Assembly: GCF_003334405.1 (NCBI RefSeq)
Contig: NZ_QOWM01000001.1
Direction: 5' to 3' (one strand)
Length of the DNA stretch: 64,000 nt
Source of the DNA: Escherichia coli
GTDB taxonomy: Bacteria; Pseudomonadota; Gammaproteobacteria; Enterobacterales; Enterobacteriaceae
Positions 1 through 10,198 of this stretch are shown one piece after another. The notes under the pieces were generated by a model that was not told the origin of the DNA, made no database searches, and saw nothing but the letters and a program-made list of their open reading frames with translations. The first letter of the stretch is position 1; every line of letters starts with the position of its first letter. A program made the translations under genes and the position numbers.

Positions 1-33
1 TTATGACCACAATACGACAGGTTGTGGTCATAA
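1..33 (+). terminator. 12-bp perfect inverted repeat (TTATGACCACAA / TTGTGGTCATAA, 9-nt loop) followed by a T-rich stretch; possible terminator of the gene ending upstream of the window (yfdX in K-12 synteny)
   Basis: Inverted repeat read directly at the window start; it may be clipped by the window edge. Assignment to the upstream gene is inference. Confidence 0.3.
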
Positions 34-187
34 AATTATTTGGCGCTCGCGGTGCTATAAACTCGCATTTTATATTCCTCAAAGTAAACCGCAATAATCC
101 CGTGTCATCACAAATCATTTATTATGTTATGTTTTATGGTACGCTTTAAAAAGCGTAATCATACCCTTGCTTGTAAATCACCGGCGC

Positions 188-205
188 TTCTTACAGTTGT
201 AAGAA
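188..205. promoter_or_regulatory. Candidate EvgA box: perfect 18-bp palindrome TTCTTACA-GT-TGTAAGAA upstream of frc
   Basis: Sequence read directly; matches the EvgA-box consensus as I recall it (inverted TTCPyTACA half-sites, 2-bp spacer). About 250 bp upstream of the frc start codon. Confidence 0.5.
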
Positions 206-456
206 TAACATCACAAATGTCGCGACTCTCTCTGATTACCACGAATCAATATTTATCATATTCTTCTTTTCGTCCTCACTACTTACCATGCAGAAAGGAA
301 TTGGAAGTGGCGATGAAATGATTTTCAGCACTTGATACAGGATTTTAAAAATATCGAGTGCAGCTACGACGATATTTTGCGGGTTATTTATAGAAGATAT
401 TACGCCTTAAATAAACGCTAAATTAACACATATTTAATTAACTAATAGGTATTGCT

Positions 457-1707
457 ATGTCAACTCCACTTCAAGGAATTAAAGTTCTCGATTTCACCGG
501 TGTGCAATCTGGCCCATCTTGTACTCAAATGCTGGCCTGGTTTGGCGCTGACGTTATTAAAATTGAACGTCCCGGCGTTGGTGACGTAACGCGTCACCAG
601 CTGCGAGATATTCCTGATATCGATGCGCTTTACTTCACCATGCTTAACAGTAACAAACGTTCTATTGAGTTAAATACCAAAACAGCGGAAGGCAAAGAGG
701 TAATGGAAAAGCTGATCCGCGAAGCTGATATCTTAGTCGAGAACTTTCATCCAGGGGCCATTGATCACATGGGCTTCACCTGGGAGCATATTCAAGAAAT
801 CAATCCACGTCTGATTTTTGGTTCGATCAAAGGGTTTGATGAGTGTTCGCCTTATGTGAATGTAAAAGCCTATGAAAACGTTGCTCAGGCAGCGGGTGGC
901 GCGGCATCCACTACGGGTTTTTGGGATGGTCCGCCGCTGGTAAGCGCTGCAGCGTTGGGTGACAGCAACACCGGAATGCATTTGCTGATCGGTTTACTTG
1001 CTGCTTTGCTGCATCGCGAAAAAACGGGGCGTGGGCAACGAGTCACCATGTCAATGCAGGATGCCGTATTGAACCTTTGCCGCGTGAAATTACGTGACCA
1101 GCAGCGTCTCGATAAATTGGGTTATCTGGAAGAATACCCGCAGTATCCGAATGGTACATTTGGTGATGCAGTTCCCCGCGGTGGTAATGCAGGTGGTGGC
1201 GGTCAGCCTGGCTGGATCCTGAAATGTAAAGGCTGGGAAACCGATCCTAACGCCTATATTTATTTCACTATTCAGGAGCAAAACTGGGAAAACACCTGTA
1301 AAGCCATCGGCAAACCAGAATGGATTACCGATCCGGCATACAGTACAGCCCATGCACGACAGCCACATATTTTCGATATTTTTGCTGAAATCGAAAAATA
1401 CACTGTCACTATTGATAAACATGAAGCGGTGGCCTATTTGACTCAGTTTGATATTCCTTGTGCACCGGTTTTAAGTATGAAAGAAATTTCACTTGATCCC
1501 TCTTTGCGCCAAAGTGGCAGTGTTGTTGAAGTGGAACAACCGTTGCGTGGAAAATATCTGACCGTTGGTTGTCCAATGAAATTCTCTGCCTTTACGCCGG
1601 ATATTAAAGCTGCGCCGCTATTAGGTGAACATACCGCTGCTGTATTGCAGGAGCTGGGTTATAGCGACGATGAAATTGCTGCAATGAAGCAAAACCACGC
1701 CATCTGA
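457..1707 (+). CDS. frc: Formyl-CoA:oxalate CoA-transferase (family III CoA-transferase)
   Basis: 416-aa ORF, N-terminus [20 protein letters not shown] typical of Frc/YfdW; length and synteny with oxc. Confidence 0.93.
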
Positions 1708-1760
1708 TATTAACGGGGGCTTCTGGCTCCCAATTTATAAAAATTTCGAGGTTATTAATC

Positions 1761-3455
1761 ATGTCAGATCAACTTCAAATGACAGATGGTATGCATATCA
1801 TCGTTGAAGCATTAAAACAGAATAATATTGACACTATTTATGGTGTTGTAGGTATTCCTGTGACGGATATGGCACGCCATGCCCAGGCGGAAGGCATTCG
1901 TTATATTGGTTTTCGTCATGAGCAGTCGGCAGGCTATGCCGCTGCGGCAAGCGGTTTTCTTACCCAAAAACCGGGGATCTGCCTGACAGTTTCTGCGCCA
2001 GGATTCCTCAATGGTTTGACCGCATTGGCCAACGCAACGGTAAATGGTTTTCCGATGATCATGATTAGCGGCTCCAGCGACCGCGCGATCGTCGACCTAC
2101 AGCAAGGTGATTATGAAGAGCTGGACCAAATGAATGCGGCAAAACCGTATGCCAAAGCAGCATTTCGCGTTAATCAGCCGCAGGATCTTGGCATTGCATT
2201 GGCACGCGCTATCCGGGTCTCTGTATCGGGTCGCCCTGGCGGAGTTTATCTTGATTTGCCAGCAAATGTCCTGGCCGCGACGATGGAAAAAGACGAAGCG
2301 TTAACCACGATTGTTAAAGTTGAAAATCCGTCGCCAGCATTATTGCCATGCCCGAAGTCAGTCACTAGCGCAATTTCGCTTTTAGCAAAAGCTGAACGGC
2401 CATTAATTATCCTTGGCAAAGGCGCGGCGTATTCACAAGCTGATGAACAGCTTCGTGAATTTATTGAAAGTGCTCAGATTCCATTCCTGCCAATGTCTAT
2501 GGCGAAAGGGATCCTTGAAGATACGCATCCACTTTCTGCGGCAGCTGCGCGTTCGTTTGCCCTGGCAAATGCTGACGTTGTCATGCTTGTTGGTGCACGA
2601 CTGAATTGGTTATTGGCACACGGTAAAAAAGGATGGGCGGCAGATACACAGTTTATTCAACTGGATATTGAACCGCAGGAAATTGACAGCAACCGCCCCA
2701 TTGCTGTGCCAGTCGTTGGTGATATTGCATCCAGTATGCAAGGTATGCTGGCAGAACTGAAACAAAACACATTTACGACTCCACTGGTATGGCGCGATAT
2801 TTTAAATATCCACAAGCAGCAAAATGCACAAAAAATGCATGAAAAATTAAGTACAGATACTCAACCATTAAATTACTTTAATGCATTAAGTGCTGTGCGC
2901 GACGTATTGCGCGAGAACCAGGATATTTATTTAGTTAATGAAGGTGCAAATACCCTGGATAATGCACGAAATATTATTGATATGTATAAACCACGTCGTC
3001 GTCTGGATTGTGGTACCTGGGGTGTCATGGGCATCGGTATGGGCTATGCCATCGGTGCTAGCGTGACTTCTGGTTCTCCGGTTGTCGCCATTGAAGGTGA
3101 TAGTGCTTTTGGTTTCAGTGGGATGGAAATTGAAACGATTTGTCGATATAACCTGCCGGTGACGATCGTTATTTTTAATAATGGCGGCATCTACAGAGGA
3201 GACGGTGTTGATCTCAGTGGCGCTGGTGCACCATCACCAACGGATCTGTTGCACCATGCAAGGTATGACAAATTAATGGATGCGTTTCGTGGCGTTGGCT
3301 ATAACGTCACCACGACAGATGAACTTCGTCATGCTTTAACCACCGGTATTCAGTCGCGCAAACCGACCATTATTAATGTGGTCATCGACCCTGCAGCAGG
3401 AACTGAAAGTGGCCATATTACCAAACTTAACCCAAAACAAGTCGCTGGTAATTAA
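1761..3455 (+). CDS. oxc: Oxalyl-CoA decarboxylase (thiamine-diphosphate dependent)
   Basis: 564-aa ORF with ThDP-binding motif (GDSAFGFSGMEIETICRYNLPVTIVIFNNGG); synteny with frc. Confidence 0.93.
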   Translation: MSDQLQMTDGMHIIVEALKQNNIDTIYGVVGIPVTDMARHAQAEGIRYIGFRHEQSAGYAAAASGFLTQKPGICLTVSAPGFLNGLTALANATVNGFPMIMISGSSDRAIVDLQQGDYEELDQMNAAKPYAKAAFRVNQPQDLGIALARAIRVSVSGRPGGVYLDLPANVLAATMEKDEALTTIVKVENPSPALLPCPKSVTSAISLLAKAERPLIILGKGAAYSQADEQLREFIESAQIPFLPMSMAKGILEDTHPLSAAAARSFALANADVVMLVGARLNWLLAHGKKGWAADTQFIQLDIEPQEIDSNRPIAVPVVGDIASSMQGMLAELKQNTFTTPLVWRDILNIHKQQNAQKMHEKLSTDTQPLNYFNALSAVRDVLRENQDIYLVNEGANTLDNARNIIDMYKPRRRLDCGTWGVMGIGMGYAIGASVTSGSPVVAIEGDSAFGFSGMEIETICRYNLPVTIVIFNNGGIYRGDGVDLSGAGAPSPTDLLHHARYDKLMDAFRGVGYNVTTTDELRHALTTGIQSRKPTIINVVIDPAAGTESGHITKLNPKQVAGN

Positions 3456-3524
3456 ATACTGACATCGTCTCCTCTTGCCAACTCATTATGCGATGGTGAG
3501 GGGACCCTTATCGGAAATACTATT

Positions 3525-4469
3525 ATGCTAACATTTTTTATTGGCGATTTATTGCCTATTATCGTAATCATGCTGTTGGGTTATTTTAGCGGCAGACGAG
3601 AAACATTTTCAGAAGATCAAGCTCGGGCATTTAATAAACTGGTATTAAACTACGCGCTTCCTGCGGCTCTATTTGTATCTATTACTCGGGCAAACAGGGA
3701 AATGATTTTTGCGGACACTCGTCTGACCCTTGTATCACTTGTGGTTATTGTCGGATGTTTCTTTTTCTCCTGGTTCGGTTGCTACAAATTTTTTAAACGT
3801 ACCCATGCAGAAGCAGCTGTATGTGCATTAATTGCAGGTTCACCTACCATTGGATTCCTGGGGTTTGCAGTTCTCGATCCTATTTATGGTGATTCCGTAT
3901 CAACAGGTTTAGTGGTAGCAATTATTTCTATTATTGTTAACGCAATTACTATTCCTATTGGTCTGTATTTGCTGAATCCTTCTTCAGGAGCGGATGGTAA
4001 GAAGAATAGTAATCTGAGCGCATTAATTTCTGCGGCAAAGGAGCCAGTAGTATGGGCACCTGTTCTGGCAACGATCCTGGTGTTGGTTGGGGTAAAAATT
4101 CCGGCAGCATGGGACCCAACCTTTAATCTGATTGCGAAGGCTAACTCAGGGGTAGCGGTATTCGCTGCGGGGTTGACTCTGGCTGCACATAAATTCGAGT
4201 TCAGTGCCGAAATTGCTTATAACACCTTCCTGAAGCTGATTCTGATGCCACTGGCACTGCTTCTCGTTGGTATGGCATGTCATTTGAACAGCGAACATCT
4301 GCAGATGATGGTACTGGCAGGCGCATTACCGCCGGCATTCTCCGGAATCATTATTGCCAGCCGGTTTAATGTCTACACCCGTACTGGTACAGCGTCATTG
4401 GCTGTGAGCGTACTGGGCTTTGTCGTCACGGCTCCCTTGTGGATTTATGTCAGTCGACTGGTTTCATAA
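3525..4469 (+). CDS. yfdV: AEC-family membrane transporter YfdV
   Basis: 314-aa hydrophobic ORF; position between oxc and yfdE as in K-12. Confidence 0.85.
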
Positions 4470-4497
4470 TTAATCATGTTATTGATTTTACATAAAT

Positions 4498-4528
4498 GCC
4501 GAAGTGTCTTTTCACCTTCGGCTTTTTT
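4498..4528 (+). terminator. Rho-independent terminator-like hairpin (GCCGAAG...CTTCGGC + T6) between yfdV and yfdE
   Basis: 7-bp GC-rich stem, 11-nt loop, then TTTTTT, read directly. Confidence 0.5.
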
Positions 4529-4542
4529 CAAGGCATAAGCAA

Positions 4543-5688
4543 ATGACAAATAATGAAAGCAAAGGGCCGTTTGAAGGCTTATTAGTTATCGATATGACAC
4601 ATGTCCTTAATGGACCTTTCGGAACTCAACTTCTTTGTAATATGGGCGCAAGGGTAATTAAAGTTGAGCCGCCGGGTCATGGTGATGATACCCGCACATT
4701 TGGTCCCTATGTGGATGGACAGTCACTCTATTACAGTTTTATTAATCATGGCAAAGAGAGTGTGGTTCTTGATTTAAAGAATGATCACGATAAAAGTATA
4801 TTTATAAATATGCTCAAACAAGCTGATGTATTAGCTGAGAATTTTCGCCCAGGTACAATGGAAAAACTGGGGTTTTCATGGGAAACGCTTCAAGAAATCA
4901 ACCCGCGCCTCATATATGCTTCATCGTCAGGTTTCGGACATACCGGTCCGCTAAAAGATGCTCCTGCCTACGATACCATCATTCAGGCAATGAGCGGGAT
5001 AATGATGGAAACAGGATATCCTGATGCTCCGCCAGTGCGCGTTGGTACATCTCTTGCGGATCTATGCGGCGGTGTCTATTTATTCAGCGGAATAGTGAGT
5101 GCACTTTATGGCCGCGAAAAGAGCCAGAGAGGGGCGCATGTCGATATAGCGATGTTTGATGCCACGCTGAGTTTTCTGGAGCATGGTCTGATGGCATATA
5201 TCGCAACTGGGAAGTCACCACAACGTCTGGGAAATCGCCATCCCTACATGGCACCTTTTGATGTTTTCAATACTCAGGATAAGCCGATTACGATTTGTTG
5301 TGGTAATGACAAGCTTTTTTCTGCGTTATGCCAGGCACTGGAGCTTACGGAACTGGTTAATGATCCCCGATTTAGCAGCAATATTTTACGCGTACAAAAC
5401 CAGGCTATTCTTAAACAATATATTGAGCGGACGTTAAAAACGCAGGCAGCTGAAGTTTGGTTAGCCAGAATACATGAAGTTGGTGTACCCGTCGCGCCGT
5501 TATTAAGTGTGGCTGAGGCCATTAAATTGCCACAAACTCAGGCGAGAAATATGTTGATTGAAGCCGGGGGAATAATGATGCCGGGTAATCCGATAAAAAT
5601 CAGCGGCTGCGCGGACCCGCATGTTATGCCGGGAGCGGCAACGCTCGACCAGCATGGGGAACAAATTCGCCAGGAGTTCTCATCATAA
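4543..5688 (+). CDS. yfdE: Acetyl-CoA:oxalate CoA-transferase (family III CoA-transferase) YfdE
   Basis: ORF track gives 394 aa from 4504; I place the start at the internal ATG 4543 (MTNNESKGPFEGLLVIDMTH, 381 aa), just after the terminator hairpin. Paralogous to frc. Confidence 0.85.
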   Translation: MTNNESKGPFEGLLVIDMTHVLNGPFGTQLLCNMGARVIKVEPPGHGDDTRTFGPYVDGQSLYYSFINHGKESVVLDLKNDHDKSIFINMLKQADVLAENFRPGTMEKLGFSWETLQEINPRLIYASSSGFGHTGPLKDAPAYDTIIQAMSGIMMETGYPDAPPVRVGTSLADLCGGVYLFSGIVSALYGREKSQRGAHVDIAMFDATLSFLEHGLMAYIATGKSPQRLGNRHPYMAPFDVFNTQDKPITICCGNDKLFSALCQALELTELVNDPRFSSNILRVQNQAILKQYIERTLKTQAAEVWLARIHEVGVPVAPLLSVAEAIKLPQTQARNMLIEAGGIMMPGNPIKISGCADPHVMPGAATLDQHGEQIRQEFSS

Positions 5689-5711
5689 ATGTAAGATGTG
5701 CTGGTAAATAG

Positions 5712-5736
5712 CTCCCACATTTGAACATTGTGGGAG
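5712..5736. terminator. Hairpin (CTCCCACA...TGTGGGAG) between convergent yfdE and evgS; putative bidirectional terminator
   Basis: 8-bp inverted repeat with 9-nt loop read directly; T-runs are weak. Confidence 0.35.
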
Positions 5737-5743
5737 CCGCTAT

Positions 5744-8700
5744 TTAGTCATTTTTCTGACAGAAAACAGCAATCTCCTGGTCCAGCTCTGCAATGTGTTC
5801 TTTTACAGAGTTCAGCAACTGAAGAATTTCAGGCTTACTGTCATCTGAAACAGGTGTTATTTCTAACTGATGGCTAATATTAATCAACTTTTGCAAATTC
5901 AGGATGTTAGCCGCACCGTGGATGCGATGAATACACTGATGGAAAGTTCTGTTATCGCCAGCTTCTAGTGCTTGAAACGCAGCGGGTAGATCTTTATGCG
6001 TTTCATGCTGGAAAGTCATGAGAATCTCCTGCATCAGTTGTAGATCGTTCGCCGTATTATTTTTCAGGGCTTCGATATCAAGGTGGCGATACTGAGGTGC
6101 AATATGCGCAACTTGGTGTAACTGACTTAAATGTGTTTTCAGTACATCCAGGGTCAACGGTTTGAACAAACATAAGTTCATGCCGCAACTTAACCCTTTT
6201 TCACGTTCGTTAGCCTGTGCGTTGGCTGTAAGCCCCCAGATGGGTAAGGAAGAATTTTGCTCACGGAGTTTGCGAGTCAACTCAAAACCATCCATATTCG
6301 GCATATTAACGTCAGTAATAAGCAGATCATAATGTTGCATACTGACTTTGTGTAGCGCTTGCACACCATCAGTGGCTTCATCAACATCATATCCTAATAG
6401 ATTTAGCTGGCGTTTGAGTAATAGCCTGTTGGTCGGATGATCATCCGCGATTAATATGCTCAACTTTTCAGGTAGTGTGATGGGTTGTTCTGCTTTTGCC
6501 TCGACAGTCGCCACTTGCTGGCTAATTTCTACCGGGATTGTGATCGTAAATGTTGTTCCTATGCCTGGATGACTTTCTAATGACAAATCGCCCTGCATAT
6601 TTTTAATTAATTCTTTGCAGATCATTAAGCCTAAACCAGAACCTGTTTGCTGACGACCTGCACTTGTTTGGCTGTAGCGTTTAAACAGTTGTTGTTGTTC
6701 TTCCTGCGATAATCCACTTCCAGAATCCATAATCGTCATTTTGATAACAGCGTGGTTGTCATCAATGTGACCCAGGGAGGTCGTAATTTTTACTGCCCCC
6801 TCGGTGGTAAATTTGAGAGCATTACTCAGTAAATTTGATAAGACCTGCTTAAACGCCTGAGGGTCGATCTTAACCAGGTAATGTTCAGGAAACGTACTGC
6901 TGCAACTTAATGCGATCGATTTGCTTGCAGCAATCGCACCGAAAGAGTGACAAGTGTTCTGGACTAAAGTAGGGATATCGACCCATTGTGGTTGAAGTTG
7001 ATAGTTACCCGATTCAATTTTGTCGACATCAAGGATTTCACCAATTAAGCCGAGGAGTGATTGTCCGGTGGCGTAGGCAAGTGAAATCGCCTCCACCCGT
7101 TGCTCCTTGCTAAGACCAGAACCCGACAGAAGTTCCAGGAAGCCCATAATAGAGCTTATTGGTGTTCTTATTTCGTGACTCATCGTTGCCAGAAACTGAC
7201 TTTTTGCTACGGTAGCCTTTATCGCTTTATTTTTTTCTACCTCGAGTGCATTAATTAGATCACGCGTTTCAGTAATATCTTGCCAACCACAAATATATAC
7301 TGCATTGTCACTTGCAGGAAGATTGCATAATGTATGCCAGTGATTAATGCATCTTTTCTCGATGCCATTATCAATTTCAAATACCTGTGTGTATATTGTT
7401 CGATTTTCTTTCGTTTCTGCTGTGACTTCATGCGCATTAGAAAAAACATCTTTAAAGGGTGAGTCACTGTTTTCTAATGGTAACATTGCATTTTTGTAGT
7501 AATCCGCAGTGAAATAATGTTCAAAAGCACTATTATGACTAATGACATTACCTTGCCAGTTTACAACATAAGTTGGATTCGGTAAGGAATCCGAGAGTGC
7601 TTTTCGGAATGATATTTGGTTTTCTAAATCACCCTGAATGACTTTACGACGACGAACTGAGCGTAACAGGTAGAATCCCCATAAAAGGCTACTGCCAACT
7701 AATAAAACGGATAATGTCGTAACAATATAAAATTGCTCGCTATATAGGTCCCATGTGTCAATGGTCACATTGGGCATTTTAATCCATTTTTCCGTCAGGC
7801 GCAGAACTTCGCTTGGGGGAATTGCATTCAGTGCTTTATTAATAATATCCTTAAGTTCCGGTTCTCCGCGAGGAAAAGCGAACGAAAGCGATGCATTCGG
7901 AACGCCAGGAATAAGAAAATGATAAAGTTCATTAGGATAGTAATGATCGATCATGTAACGCGAATTTAGCTGTGTCGCGACCAGAGCATCAAGTTCACCT
8001 TCCTTAACCTTGTGAAATGCAGCGCTGGCATTATCGACCTGTATCCATTCAACCTCCGGATACATCTCTTTTAATTGCGAATGCAGCTCATAATAATATG
8101 GAATGGCAACTTTCATTCCTTTTTTTAATGTTTGTTCACTGTCAGGCGCTTTTTGCATGACAAAAACGTAAGGCGTTGTTATGAAGGCTTCAGCAAATAA
8201 AACATTATTTTCTCGATCTTCACTATAAATAGCGCCAGGTATTATATCCCATCCTCCGGGGCTAAGCTGTGTTCCAGCATGGATATTGTGTGAAACGGTG
8301 ATCGGAGAAAAATTTAAACCTGTTTGCAAGGTAATAATATTAAGAATGTCCCCCATAACGCCCCGAACCGAGCCATTTTCATCCGTCATAGAATAGGGGG
8401 GCGAGTAAGGATTTTCCAGCACCTTTAAATTGGGATGCTGCTTAATCCACTGTTTTTCATGTTCAGTGAGTTCTAATGGTTTGTTCAGAAAGGCCAGGTT
8501 TCCTGTATCAAGCCAATTTTGTGATACTTCATAGCGAACTTCATTTGTTAAAGCATCAACAAATCTATTGAGTACTTCATTAAGAATGACAGATTCTTTT
8601 CTGGTCAAGAAAAAATTATATTGACGCGGCGAGTTATAATATTTCACTACATTTAAGGAGTGAGTGAAATAGCGGGAAATCATACTGCTGGTAATGATGT

Positions 8701-9337
8701 TACTACCAATAAAGTAATCATTGTGCCCAGCTGAGACGGATGCTAATGCCTGATATAAATTTGTAAAAGAGATAATTGTTGCTTTTGGAAATGATTGATG
8801 AATTACCTCGTCTGGGGGGTAATTTGCTACCCGAGCAATATTTACTGGTTTTGGTGAGGTAAGCGGTCGCATTGAGTCGTGAAGGGTGGTTACCAGCGCC
8901 GGAAAGGTAATTATCAATGGTTTGGTTGCAGCAATGTCATTATTAAGAGGCGGCGAAGTAACTAAATGTGATAACACTATATCGACTTCACCTTCTGCAA
9001 GCGCGTCCATTGCTTTTTGATGATCTGCGTATTCCCGGAGTGTTAATTTGATATTTAACGCTCTTTTTAAAAGATTTAAATAATCAGCATTAATACCACG
9101 AACCCGTTGCTGCGAATCGGTATGCAACAACGTAGCCGTTTGGGACTTATGTACTGCAATCACAAGATTTTTTTTGCTCGCTAACCAACGTAATTCCTTG
9201 TTGCTCAGACGTAGTGGATCAAGTGTGACACGGTTGTTACTACTGATGCCACGATATTCGATGTAATCTTCGTCTGCGAAACTTATGGTCGACCAAAGAC
9301 CACAACAGAGAAGAAAAATATAGGGTAAAAACTTCAT
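5744..9337 (-). CDS. evgS: Hybrid sensor histidine kinase EvgS (periplasmic binding-protein domains, HisKA/HATPase, receiver, HPt)
   Basis: 1197-aa ORF with signal peptide, H-box MSHEIRTP, receiver domain (LIADDHPTNR) and C-terminal HPt; adjacent to evgA. Confidence 0.95.
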   Translation of the reverse strand: MKFLPYIFLLCCGLWSTISFADEDYIEYRGISSNNRVTLDPLRLSNKELRWLASKKNLVIAVHKSQTATLLHTDSQQRVRGINADYLNLLKRALNIKLTLREYADHQKAMDALAEGEVDIVLSHLVTSPPLNNDIAATKPLIITFPALVTTLHDSMRPLTSPKPVNIARVANYPPDEVIHQSFPKATIISFTNLYQALASVSAGHNDYFIGSNIITSSMISRYFTHSLNVVKYYNSPRQYNFFLTRKESVILNEVLNRFVDALTNEVRYEVSQNWLDTGNLAFLNKPLELTEHEKQWIKQHPNLKVLENPYSPPYSMTDENGSVRGVMGDILNIITLQTGLNFSPITVSHNIHAGTQLSPGGWDIIPGAIYSEDRENNVLFAEAFITTPYVFVMQKAPDSEQTLKKGMKVAIPYYYELHSQLKEMYPEVEWIQVDNASAAFHKVKEGELDALVATQLNSRYMIDHYYPNELYHFLIPGVPNASLSFAFPRGEPELKDIINKALNAIPPSEVLRLTEKWIKMPNVTIDTWDLYSEQFYIVTTLSVLLVGSSLLWGFYLLRSVRRRKVIQGDLENQISFRKALSDSLPNPTYVVNWQGNVISHNSAFEHYFTADYYKNAMLPLENSDSPFKDVFSNAHEVTAETKENRTIYTQVFEIDNGIEKRCINHWHTLCNLPASDNAVYICGWQDITETRDLINALEVEKNKAIKATVAKSQFLATMSHEIRTPISSIMGFLELLSGSGLSKEQRVEAISLAYATGQSLLGLIGEILDVDKIESGNYQLQPQWVDIPTLVQNTCHSFGAIAASKSIALSCSSTFPEHYLVKIDPQAFKQVLSNLLSNALKFTTEGAVKITTSLGHIDDNHAVIKMTIMDSGSGLSQEEQQQLFKRYSQTSAGRQQTGSGLGLMICKELIKNMQGDLSLESHPGIGTTFTITIPVEISQQVATVEAKAEQPITLPEKLSILIADDHPTNRLLLKRQLNLLGYDVDEATDGVQALHKVSMQHYDLLITDVNMPNMDGFELTRKLREQNSSLPIWGLTANAQANEREKGLSCGMNLCLFKPLTLDVLKTHLSQLHQVAHIAPQYRHLDIEALKNNTANDLQLMQEILMTFQHETHKDLPAAFQALEAGDNRTFHQCIHRIHGAANILNLQKLINISHQLEITPVSDDSKPEILQLLNSVKEHIAELDQEIAVFCQKND

Positions 9338-9341
9338 GTGG

Positions 9342-9956
9342 TTAGCCGATTTTGTTACGTTGTGCGAATGTGTAAAGATCCATCAGTGATTTACATTCTA
9401 ATTTTTCCATCAGGCGACTTTTATAAGTGCTGACAGTTTTGTTGCTGATGAACATTTTTTCAGCAATGTCATTATTATCCTTGCCATCAAGAATATACCG
9501 CATGACACTAATTTCTTGTTTCGATAAGGAGTCGAGTTTTTGCTGGTCGGACGTTAAACTTCCAACAAACCGGTTGAGAGAGAAGGGGAAATAGCAGTAG
9601 CCATTTTTTGCAGCTTCAATAGCCGCAATGATATTGTTCATGCCTTCTTTTTTACTCACGAAACCATTAGCGCCAGCATCAGCACAATGTTTCCCGTAAA
9701 AATGGTCATTTTTAGCGGAGACGATAATAATAATTCCGCTATATTGGCGCTTCCTCAGCGTTTCTAACACCTGGATACCGTTAACTCCGGGGATATCGAC
9801 ATCAATGATGACGATATCAGGCTTAAGTGTTTCCACCCGCTGAACGGCACTTCCGCCTTCAGTCAACTCTGCTAAGATTTCAATATCGTTTTTGATCAAT
9901 AAATTACGAATTGCTGCGATAGCAAGAGGATGGTCATCAATAATTATTGCGTTCAT
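9342..9956 (-). CDS. evgA: Response regulator EvgA (NarL/FixJ family)
   Basis: 204-aa ORF MNAIIIDDHPLAIAAIRNLL with receiver and LuxR-type HTH; 4 bp upstream of evgS. Confidence 0.95.
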   Translation of the reverse strand: MNAIIIDDHPLAIAAIRNLLIKNDIEILAELTEGGSAVQRVETLKPDIVIIDVDIPGVNGIQVLETLRKRQYSGIIIIVSAKNDHFYGKHCADAGANGFVSKKEGMNNIIAAIEAAKNGYCYFPFSLNRFVGSLTSDQQKLDSLSKQEISVMRYILDGKDNNDIAEKMFISNKTVSTYKSRLMEKLECKSLMDLYTFAQRNKIG

Positions 9957-10180
9957 AGATTATTCCCTTTGCAATGAAGCATCTCCCTTCTCCCTGTAGT
10001 AATACAGACATAAGGCGTCATCTCATTTTCTCAATAAAAATAAGAAAATCTGAGCTTCCTTTAAGATAATTCGACAAGTATACCATATAAATAGTCGGCA
10101 TAAATGAAATGTCAACAATAAAATCAGGGATTGTACCGATGATTTATAGTTTCAAGTTGGCACTATAAGTCTTCTTACTA

Positions 10181-10198
10181 ATCCTACAGGCGTAAGAA
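10181..10198. promoter_or_regulatory. Candidate EvgA box (ATCCTACA-GG-CGTAAGAA) in the evgA/emrK divergent promoter region
   Basis: Near-palindrome read directly with one mismatch per half-site to the consensus; an additional TTCTTAC half-site lies at 10173-10179. Confidence 0.45.

Follow-up and report, generated by a model that had tools for sequence, protein, structure and literature searches.

Between yfdV and yfdE, in the EvgA-activated frc-oxc-yfdV-yfdE unit of Escherichia coli, there probably lies a constitutive, partially efficient Rho-independent terminator, with yfdE being transcribed by read-through. Throughout, the window denotes the whole stretch of 64,000 nucleotides that was analysed, and positions are counted along it. 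An MG1655 genome position equals 2,493,711 − the window position, with the + strand of the window corresponding to the minus strand of MG1655. In sequence comparison, the yfdV–yfdE region of the window is a 100% match to E. coli K-12. The genes and the regulatory site framing the element are the following.

188-205, + strand: perfect EvgA-box inverted repeat TTCTTACAGTTGTAAGAA ahead of frc, marking where the transcripts that run into the hairpin presumably originate
457-1707, + strand: frc (ORF table; gene name confirmed by the RefSeq K-12 annotation)
1761-3455, + strand: oxc (ORF table; gene name confirmed by the RefSeq K-12 annotation)
3525-4469, + strand: yfdV, transporter of 314 aa, the gene directly preceding the terminator (ORF table, RefSeq K-12 annotation)
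4467-4469, + strand: yfdV stop codon TAA, 28 nt upstream of the hairpin (sequence read directly)
4470-4542, + strand: yfdV–yfdE spacer, 73 nt (sequence read directly)
4543-5688, + strand: yfdE, acetyl-CoA:oxalate CoA-transferase of 381 aa, downstream of the terminator (ORF table, RefSeq K-12 annotation)
from 4504, + strand: GTG ORF of 394 aa, the alternative yfdE start (ORF table)
5744-9337, − strand: evgS, convergent (ORF table, RefSeq K-12 annotation)

Reading from the yfdV stop codon, the spacer runs TTAATCATGTTATTGATTTTACATAAAT-GCCGAAGTG-TCTTTT-CA-C-CTTCGGC-TTTTTT-CAAGGCATAAGCAA-ATG and can be divided into these parts.

4498-4506, + strand: 5' arm of the terminator stem, GCCGAAGTG (sequence and RNAfold)
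4507-4512, + strand: hairpin loop TCTTTT, 6 nt (sequence and RNAfold)
4513-4522, + strand: 3' arm of the stem, CA-C-CTTCGGC, in which C4515 is bulged (sequence and RNAfold)
4523-4528, + strand (MG1655 2489183-2489188, minus strand): T6 tract abutting the closing G-C pair of the stem, where the RNA 3' ends are predicted
4530-4533, + strand: AAGG, Shine-Dalgarno-like motif of yfdE, 9 nt before its ATG

A sequence-only reading had earlier placed a hairpin with a T6 tract in the 73-bp gap between both genes, and on direct reading of the sequence its coordinates are exact. The stem (4498-4522) counts 9 bp, six of them G-C, with a G-C-rich base and a single bulged C, and the yfdE ATG at 4543 follows 14 nt past the last T of T6. 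RNAfold assigns −12.4 kcal/mol to positions 4494-4530 (z = −4.28); none of 200 dinucleotide shuffles reached this stability, and the hairpin is both the MFE and the centroid structure in contexts of 76, 111, and 151 nt. At 4498-4528 we thus find a G+C-rich stem-loop and an abutting U-tract on the sense strand after yfdV, which agrees with the sequence criteria applied for intrinsic terminators (a stem of about 5-14 bp, a loop of 3-8 nt, and a U-tract starting 0-2 nt from the stem). A bidirectional terminator can be ruled out, as the tail on the minus strand is just AUUUAUGU and no minus-strand gene ends there.

The standard terminator scan, with its loop limit of 8 nt, passed over this element, whose loop it counts as 11 nt on account of the bulged C4515. 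When both strands of the 64 kb were scanned strictly (hairpin of at most 30 nt, dG <= −11 kcal/mol, TTTTTT immediately after), a single site was returned, namely the yfdV–yfdE hairpin, vs a mean of 0.12 per shuffled window (60 shuffles), placing the combination of hairpin and T6 far beyond chance. A loose scan (dG <= −10, up to 45 nt) was uninformative, giving 25 sites vs 15.8 in shuffles.

The position of the yfdE start relative to the stem needs some attention, since the 394-aa ORF begins inside the 5' arm. The earlier preference for the 381-aa start holds up on several grounds: YfdE has 381 aa in RefSeq (NP_416872.4), the numbering of its crystal structure ends at Ser381 (PMC3720670), and all orthologues start 6-8 residues ahead of a conserved GPF motif. 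The GTG at 4504 is GAG in a divergent Escherichia (L013), where a frame-breaking indel is found as well, and no conserved peptide precedes the shorter start.

Within the species, the element is nearly invariant. Of 5,426 complete E. coli genomes, 5,405 contain the yfdV–yfdE junction; among 5,381 E. coli records, 5,089 match the 53-nt core (4490-4542) at 99% identity or more. Six sampled E. coli variants carry substitutions just after the stop codon, in the Shine-Dalgarno region (C4534T), or in coding sequence, and none in the stem or the T-run. Species diversity being low, such identity would argue weakly for constraint. With a median of one place per E. coli genome for both the 53-nt and the 136-nt queries, the element is single-copy, so a REP/BIME or other dispersed repeat is ruled out. 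A further candidate Escherichia lineage, reached through P0005, turned out to be nothing but regular E. coli, in which yfdE has an internal deletion and the spacer is unaltered.

More can be learned from the close relatives. In L013, whose YfdE is 97% identical, a homologous hairpin retains the 7-bp core and is followed by T7. In Yersinia vastinensis (L005) and in L042, a metagenome contig that matches it, where YfdE is 90% identical and evgS is also adjacent, the hairpin reads ACCGAAGTA-CATATT-TACTTCGGT-ATTTTTTTT. Here, pairs 1 and 9 are A-U instead of G-C through compensatory changes in both arms, no C is bulged out, and the T-run is longer (AT8). L013 and L005 thus preserve or extend the T-run while the remaining spacer changes, and AGGCA of the yfdE Shine-Dalgarno region is conserved in both. 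Judged by sequence comparison, this pattern would be what a conserved terminator looks like, with three independent sequences being too few for statistics.

Hairpins as such are common in these clusters, and this brings in a different explanation, namely that the element mainly serves RNA stability or processing. It would then block 3'-5' exonucleases and stabilise frc-oxc-yfdV after endonucleolytic cleavage, with yfdE decaying faster and little termination taking place. We consider this unlikely. In its favour, a hairpin occupies each of the three spacers of the cluster, the yfdV–yfdE stem (4498-4522) being accompanied by two others.

1715-1731: hairpin in the frc–oxc spacer without a T-run, −11.3 kcal/mol
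3467-3505: hairpin in the oxc–yfdV spacer without a T-run, about −15.6 kcal/mol

Eleven further frc-oxc-yfdV-yfdE clusters (from Klebsiella sp., Erwinia sp., and metagenomes; YfdE 74-82% identical) were compared, and most of their yfdV-yfdE spacers hold a stem-loop of unrelated sequence in which the T-run is mostly absent; L052 has no hairpin at this place and L064 only a weak one. The oxc-yfdV spacer, used as a control, contains a hairpin wherever such a control is listed (13/14 loci), again with non-homologous sequences, two of which are no more stable than shuffled sequence (L055, z −0.18; L054, z −1.66). Taken over both spacers, most of the 14 orthologous clusters have non-homologous hairpins, mostly without a T-run, with a mean z of about −3, as would be expected of stabiliser stem-loops. 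Because most of the distant yfdV-yfdE stem-loops are without a T-run, the ancestral role of the hairpin in this spacer may, going by these sequences, have been RNA stability rather than termination.

Two points argue against stabilisation as the main role in E. coli. Firstly, most other same-strand spacers of at least 50 nt in the window also contain hairpins, so their presence is unspecific; together with the frc-oxc and oxc-yfdV spacers, they make intercistronic hairpins ordinary. The idea of a positionally conserved hairpin as a special feature of the yfdV–yfdE spacer was dropped for the same reason. Secondly, a perfect T6 abuts the stem and is conserved or lengthened in L013 and L005, whereas a stabiliser needs none. 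The distinguishing mark of the E. coli/Yersinia element is its canonical T-run. Both roles are compatible, as a terminator hairpin also protects the 3' end that it creates.

Well-known intercistronic stabiliser stem-loops are the REP hairpins of malE-malF and the hairpins of the Rhodobacter puf operon. Like these, the yfdV–yfdE hairpin is located between cistrons with the upstream segment being more abundant, and hairpins are present in every spacer of the cluster, also in orthologues with unrelated sequences. Unlike these, it is single-copy and non-REP, and possesses a canonical T6, which a stabiliser could do without.

Expression data point to a marked step at the junction. In arrays of an evgS-constitutive mutant, the log2 induction amounts to 8.37 for frc, 6.97 for yfdX, 6.59 for oxc, 6.16 for yfdV, and 3.57 for yfdE (Johnson et al. 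2014, PMC4283999, Table S4). From yfdV to yfdE, induction thus falls by 2.6 log2 (about 6-fold; a gene-level fold-change, not coverage) vs 0.43 log2 from oxc to yfdV. The earlier proposal that partial termination uncouples yfdE from frc-oxc-yfdV finds indirect support in this array step combined with the sequence criteria. Ribosome profiling at pH 5.8 lists yfdX, frc, yfdV, and oxc among the 20 largest increases (log2 4.3-4.9), a list in which yfdE is missing, putting its value below 3.33 (PMC10746267, Table 1). We infer both that termination at 4498-4528 causes the expression step and how efficient it is, which would make the element a leaky terminator of roughly 80% apparent efficiency.

The array step may have other causes, i.e., a higher yfdE baseline, probe differences, or antisense interference from evgS. 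A drop of 1.8 log2 is also seen from frc to oxc (PMC4283999), at a spacer whose hairpin is without a T-run; some polarity therefore arises without canonical terminators, and this second step down likewise speaks for the hairpins acting as stabilisers. With regard to antisense transcription, the convergent spacer between yfdE and evgS contains one further hairpin.

5711-5737: hairpin of 9 bp in the yfdE/evgS convergent spacer, GCTCCCACA…TGTGGGAGC

It has no T-run toward the yfdE side (+ strand) and just UAUUUACC in the evgS direction. A Rho-dependent region has been reported from BCM data on the evgS strand at MG1655 2488340 (window 5371), antisense inside yfdE (Adams et al. 2021), from which it follows that evgS transcription runs past this weak hairpin into yfdE. 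Such antisense read-through alone could lower or distort the yfdE signal. The Term-seq tables of the same study contain no minus-strand 3' end at 24891xx-24892xx and no yfdV entry, and indeed no minus-strand entry between yfdX and evgS; the EvgA-dependent operon is silent in the LB and M63 media used, hence these tables are uninformative here.

A further reading is that the spacer ends one transcription unit and yfdE begins another. In that case, the element would be an efficient operon-end terminator for frc-oxc-yfdV, and yfdE would be transcribed separately, from a promoter of its own within or close to the spacer. It is true that the best canonical terminator of the cluster stands before yfdE, while the hairpin after it (5711-5737) has no + strand T-run, and that a consensus promoter scan finds a promoter-like site at 4525-4554. 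However, as its −10 hexamer (4549-4554) comes only after the ATG at 4543, this site cannot yield a translatable yfdE mRNA, and promoter-like matches in the region show no excess (17 vs 20 in shuffles). Scanning with the EvgA-box consensus, reportedly that of Masuda and Church 2003, gave no box near yfdE, the frc-upstream repeat at 188-205 being the only match on the yfdE side of evgS. A second match with 2 mismatches is located beyond evgS, at 10181-10198, presumably in the evgA-emrK intergenic region.

Genomic SELEX with the sigma-70 holoenzyme points in the same direction: frc and yfdV have listed sites upstream, yfdE has none (PMC3946193). The frc promoter from that study, TTTATA-18-AATAAT, corresponds to the promoter-like site at 69-98. 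Yet in the evgS-constitutive mutant yfdE induction still reaches about 12-fold (PMC4283999), and with neither an EvgA box near yfdE nor a sigma-70 SELEX site upstream of it, this residual induction implies read-through. The literature, too, treats yfdE as a co-expressed member of the EvgA-activated yfdXWUVE/yfdWUVE operon (PMC3720670). The data fit leaky termination better than the separate yfdE promoter that the sequence-only reading had offered as an option, and we regard a separate unit as improbable. At the very start of the window (1-33), a 13-bp hairpin TTATGACCACAA…TTGTGGTCATAA is followed by an AT-rich tail; located just downstream of the end of MG1655 yfdX, it is presumably the yfdX terminator.

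It can further be asked whether termination is regulated. The yfdV stop codon lies 28 nt upstream of the hairpin, so that a terminating ribosome would leave the stem uncovered. RNA folding revealed no antiterminator, with nothing pairing with the 5' arm in the 151-nt upstream context, and an Rfam cmscan of window 1-10000 at E <= 1 gave no match in the yfdV–yfdE spacer. The distance of the stop codon, the lack of a competing fold, and the lack of an Rfam family together point to an unregulated terminator. Attenuation in the regulated sense, which had been suggested alongside partial termination, is therefore not sustained: there is neither a competing fold nor an Rfam match.

One form of regulation depends on translation instead and deserves mention because of a short ORF in the spacer.

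4476-4538, + strand: 20-codon ORF (MLLILHKCRSVFSPSAFFKA) spanning the stem and the T-run, which begins 7 nt past the yfdV stop and terminates 4 nt short of the yfdE ATG

Ribosomes leaving yfdV could re-initiate on this ORF, melt the hairpin, and reach the yfdE start, acting as a translation-sensitive attenuator or relay that couples both read-through and yfdE translation to yfdV translation. Besides the existence of the ORF, the conservation of its ATG and the surrounding TAATNAATNATGTTATT in L013 and L005/L042 is compatible with such a role. In L005/L042, the equivalent ATG shares its frame with yfdE and opens a 405-aa ORF (L005 4914-6131), and L042 (3001/3055) has GTT vs the presumed GTG start in L005. 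However, no Shine-Dalgarno motif precedes the ATG at 4476, the peptide is not conserved (a 1-nt indel shifts frame and end in L013, and in L005 the ORF is fused to yfdE), and the ORF is absent from more distant orthologues. We thus deem a relay very improbable. In the slim chance that it holds, read-through and yfdE translation would both be gated by how closely the translation of yfdV trails RNA polymerase, and in the Yersinia vastinensis lineage the same ATG would have turned into the in-frame start of an N-terminally extended YfdE.

A terminator hairpin immediately upstream of a coding start that overlaps a short ORF is reminiscent of trpL and the Rfam cis-regulatory leaders. Unlike those, the yfdV–yfdE element has no predicted antiterminator pairing and no Rfam match at E <= 1, its short ORF is unconserved as a peptide, and a full-length gene is located upstream rather than a promoter-proximal leader.

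With the leaky, constitutive terminator as the preferred reading, the course of transcription can be sketched. RNA polymerase would start at the frc promoter and transcribe frc, oxc, and yfdV. Once the stem at 4498-4522 formed in the nascent RNA, at a moment when the active site held the weak rU:dA hybrid of 4523-4528, the majority of complexes would let go of the transcript. The minority reading through would yield yfdE message, to be translated from the AAGG and ATG at 4530 and 4543. The outcome would be a fixed dosage step of about 6-fold, keeping FCOCT, OXC, and the transporter high and the 'priming' ACOCT (YfdE) low, and the hairpin would also shield the frc-oxc-yfdV RNA from exonucleases at its 3' end.

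Most likely, the element is a standard intra-operon intrinsic terminator that exerts ordinary gene-dosage control, without any new mechanism. In the literature and annotation that we searched, the terminator at 4498-4528 was found neither characterised nor annotated.

Known dosage terminators inside E. coli operons are the rplL-rpoB attenuator and T1 between rpsU and dnaG, for which 3' ends have been mapped and efficiencies measured. The yfdV–yfdE element resembles them in having a GC-rich stem and U-tract in a sense-strand intercistronic spacer without a ligand or leader peptide, and in the incomplete termination that would give the distal gene a fixed, reduced expression from the shared promoter. 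It differs in that termination is deduced from the sequence and a gene-level array step, and in the nature of the distal gene: yfdE encodes an accessory enzyme of the same pathway, whereas theirs serves a different cellular process.

If confirmed, the operon would fall into two dosage classes, with frc-oxc-yfdV being high and yfdE about 6-fold lower. A lower dosage fits the accessory role proposed for YfdE, which would only prime the formation of oxalyl-CoA (PMC3720670). Confirmation would also call for caution in work on oxalate-dependent acid tolerance, since polar effects and native yfdE expression would hinge on a leaky terminator. Beyond the yfdV–yfdE locus, it would bring nothing conceptually new. 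Nor is the arrangement found throughout the pathway: in Providencia (L007, L008), the gene order is oxc-yfdV-frc-yfdE and frc abuts or overlaps yfdE with neither spacer nor hairpin between them, which means that the dosage step of E. coli is not universal.

Finally, some strains carry rearrangements at or near the junction. In E. coli ETEC1701 (L061 1500-2330), IS200C is inserted exactly after the last T of T6 (window 4528/4529), with the junctions …CTTCGGCTTTTTT, then GTGCACAG…TATTTATT as the ends of the element, and CAAGGCATAAGCAAATG beyond it; as a result, hairpin and yfdE are ~0.7 kb apart. In E. coli VL7S7 (L004 3370-4140), IS1A has entered ~10 codons into yfdE (window ~4570), and the remaining yfdE is deleted along with evgS-evgA, bringing emrY directly next to it. 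In O157:H7 F8952 (L002), yfdE is annotated as a frameshifted pseudogene, and in another E. coli lineage (L062/L063) an internal deletion shortens the yfdE product to 350 aa with the spacer unchanged. Taken together, the two IS events, the pseudogene, and the internal deletion hint that yfdE is dispensable in some lineages.
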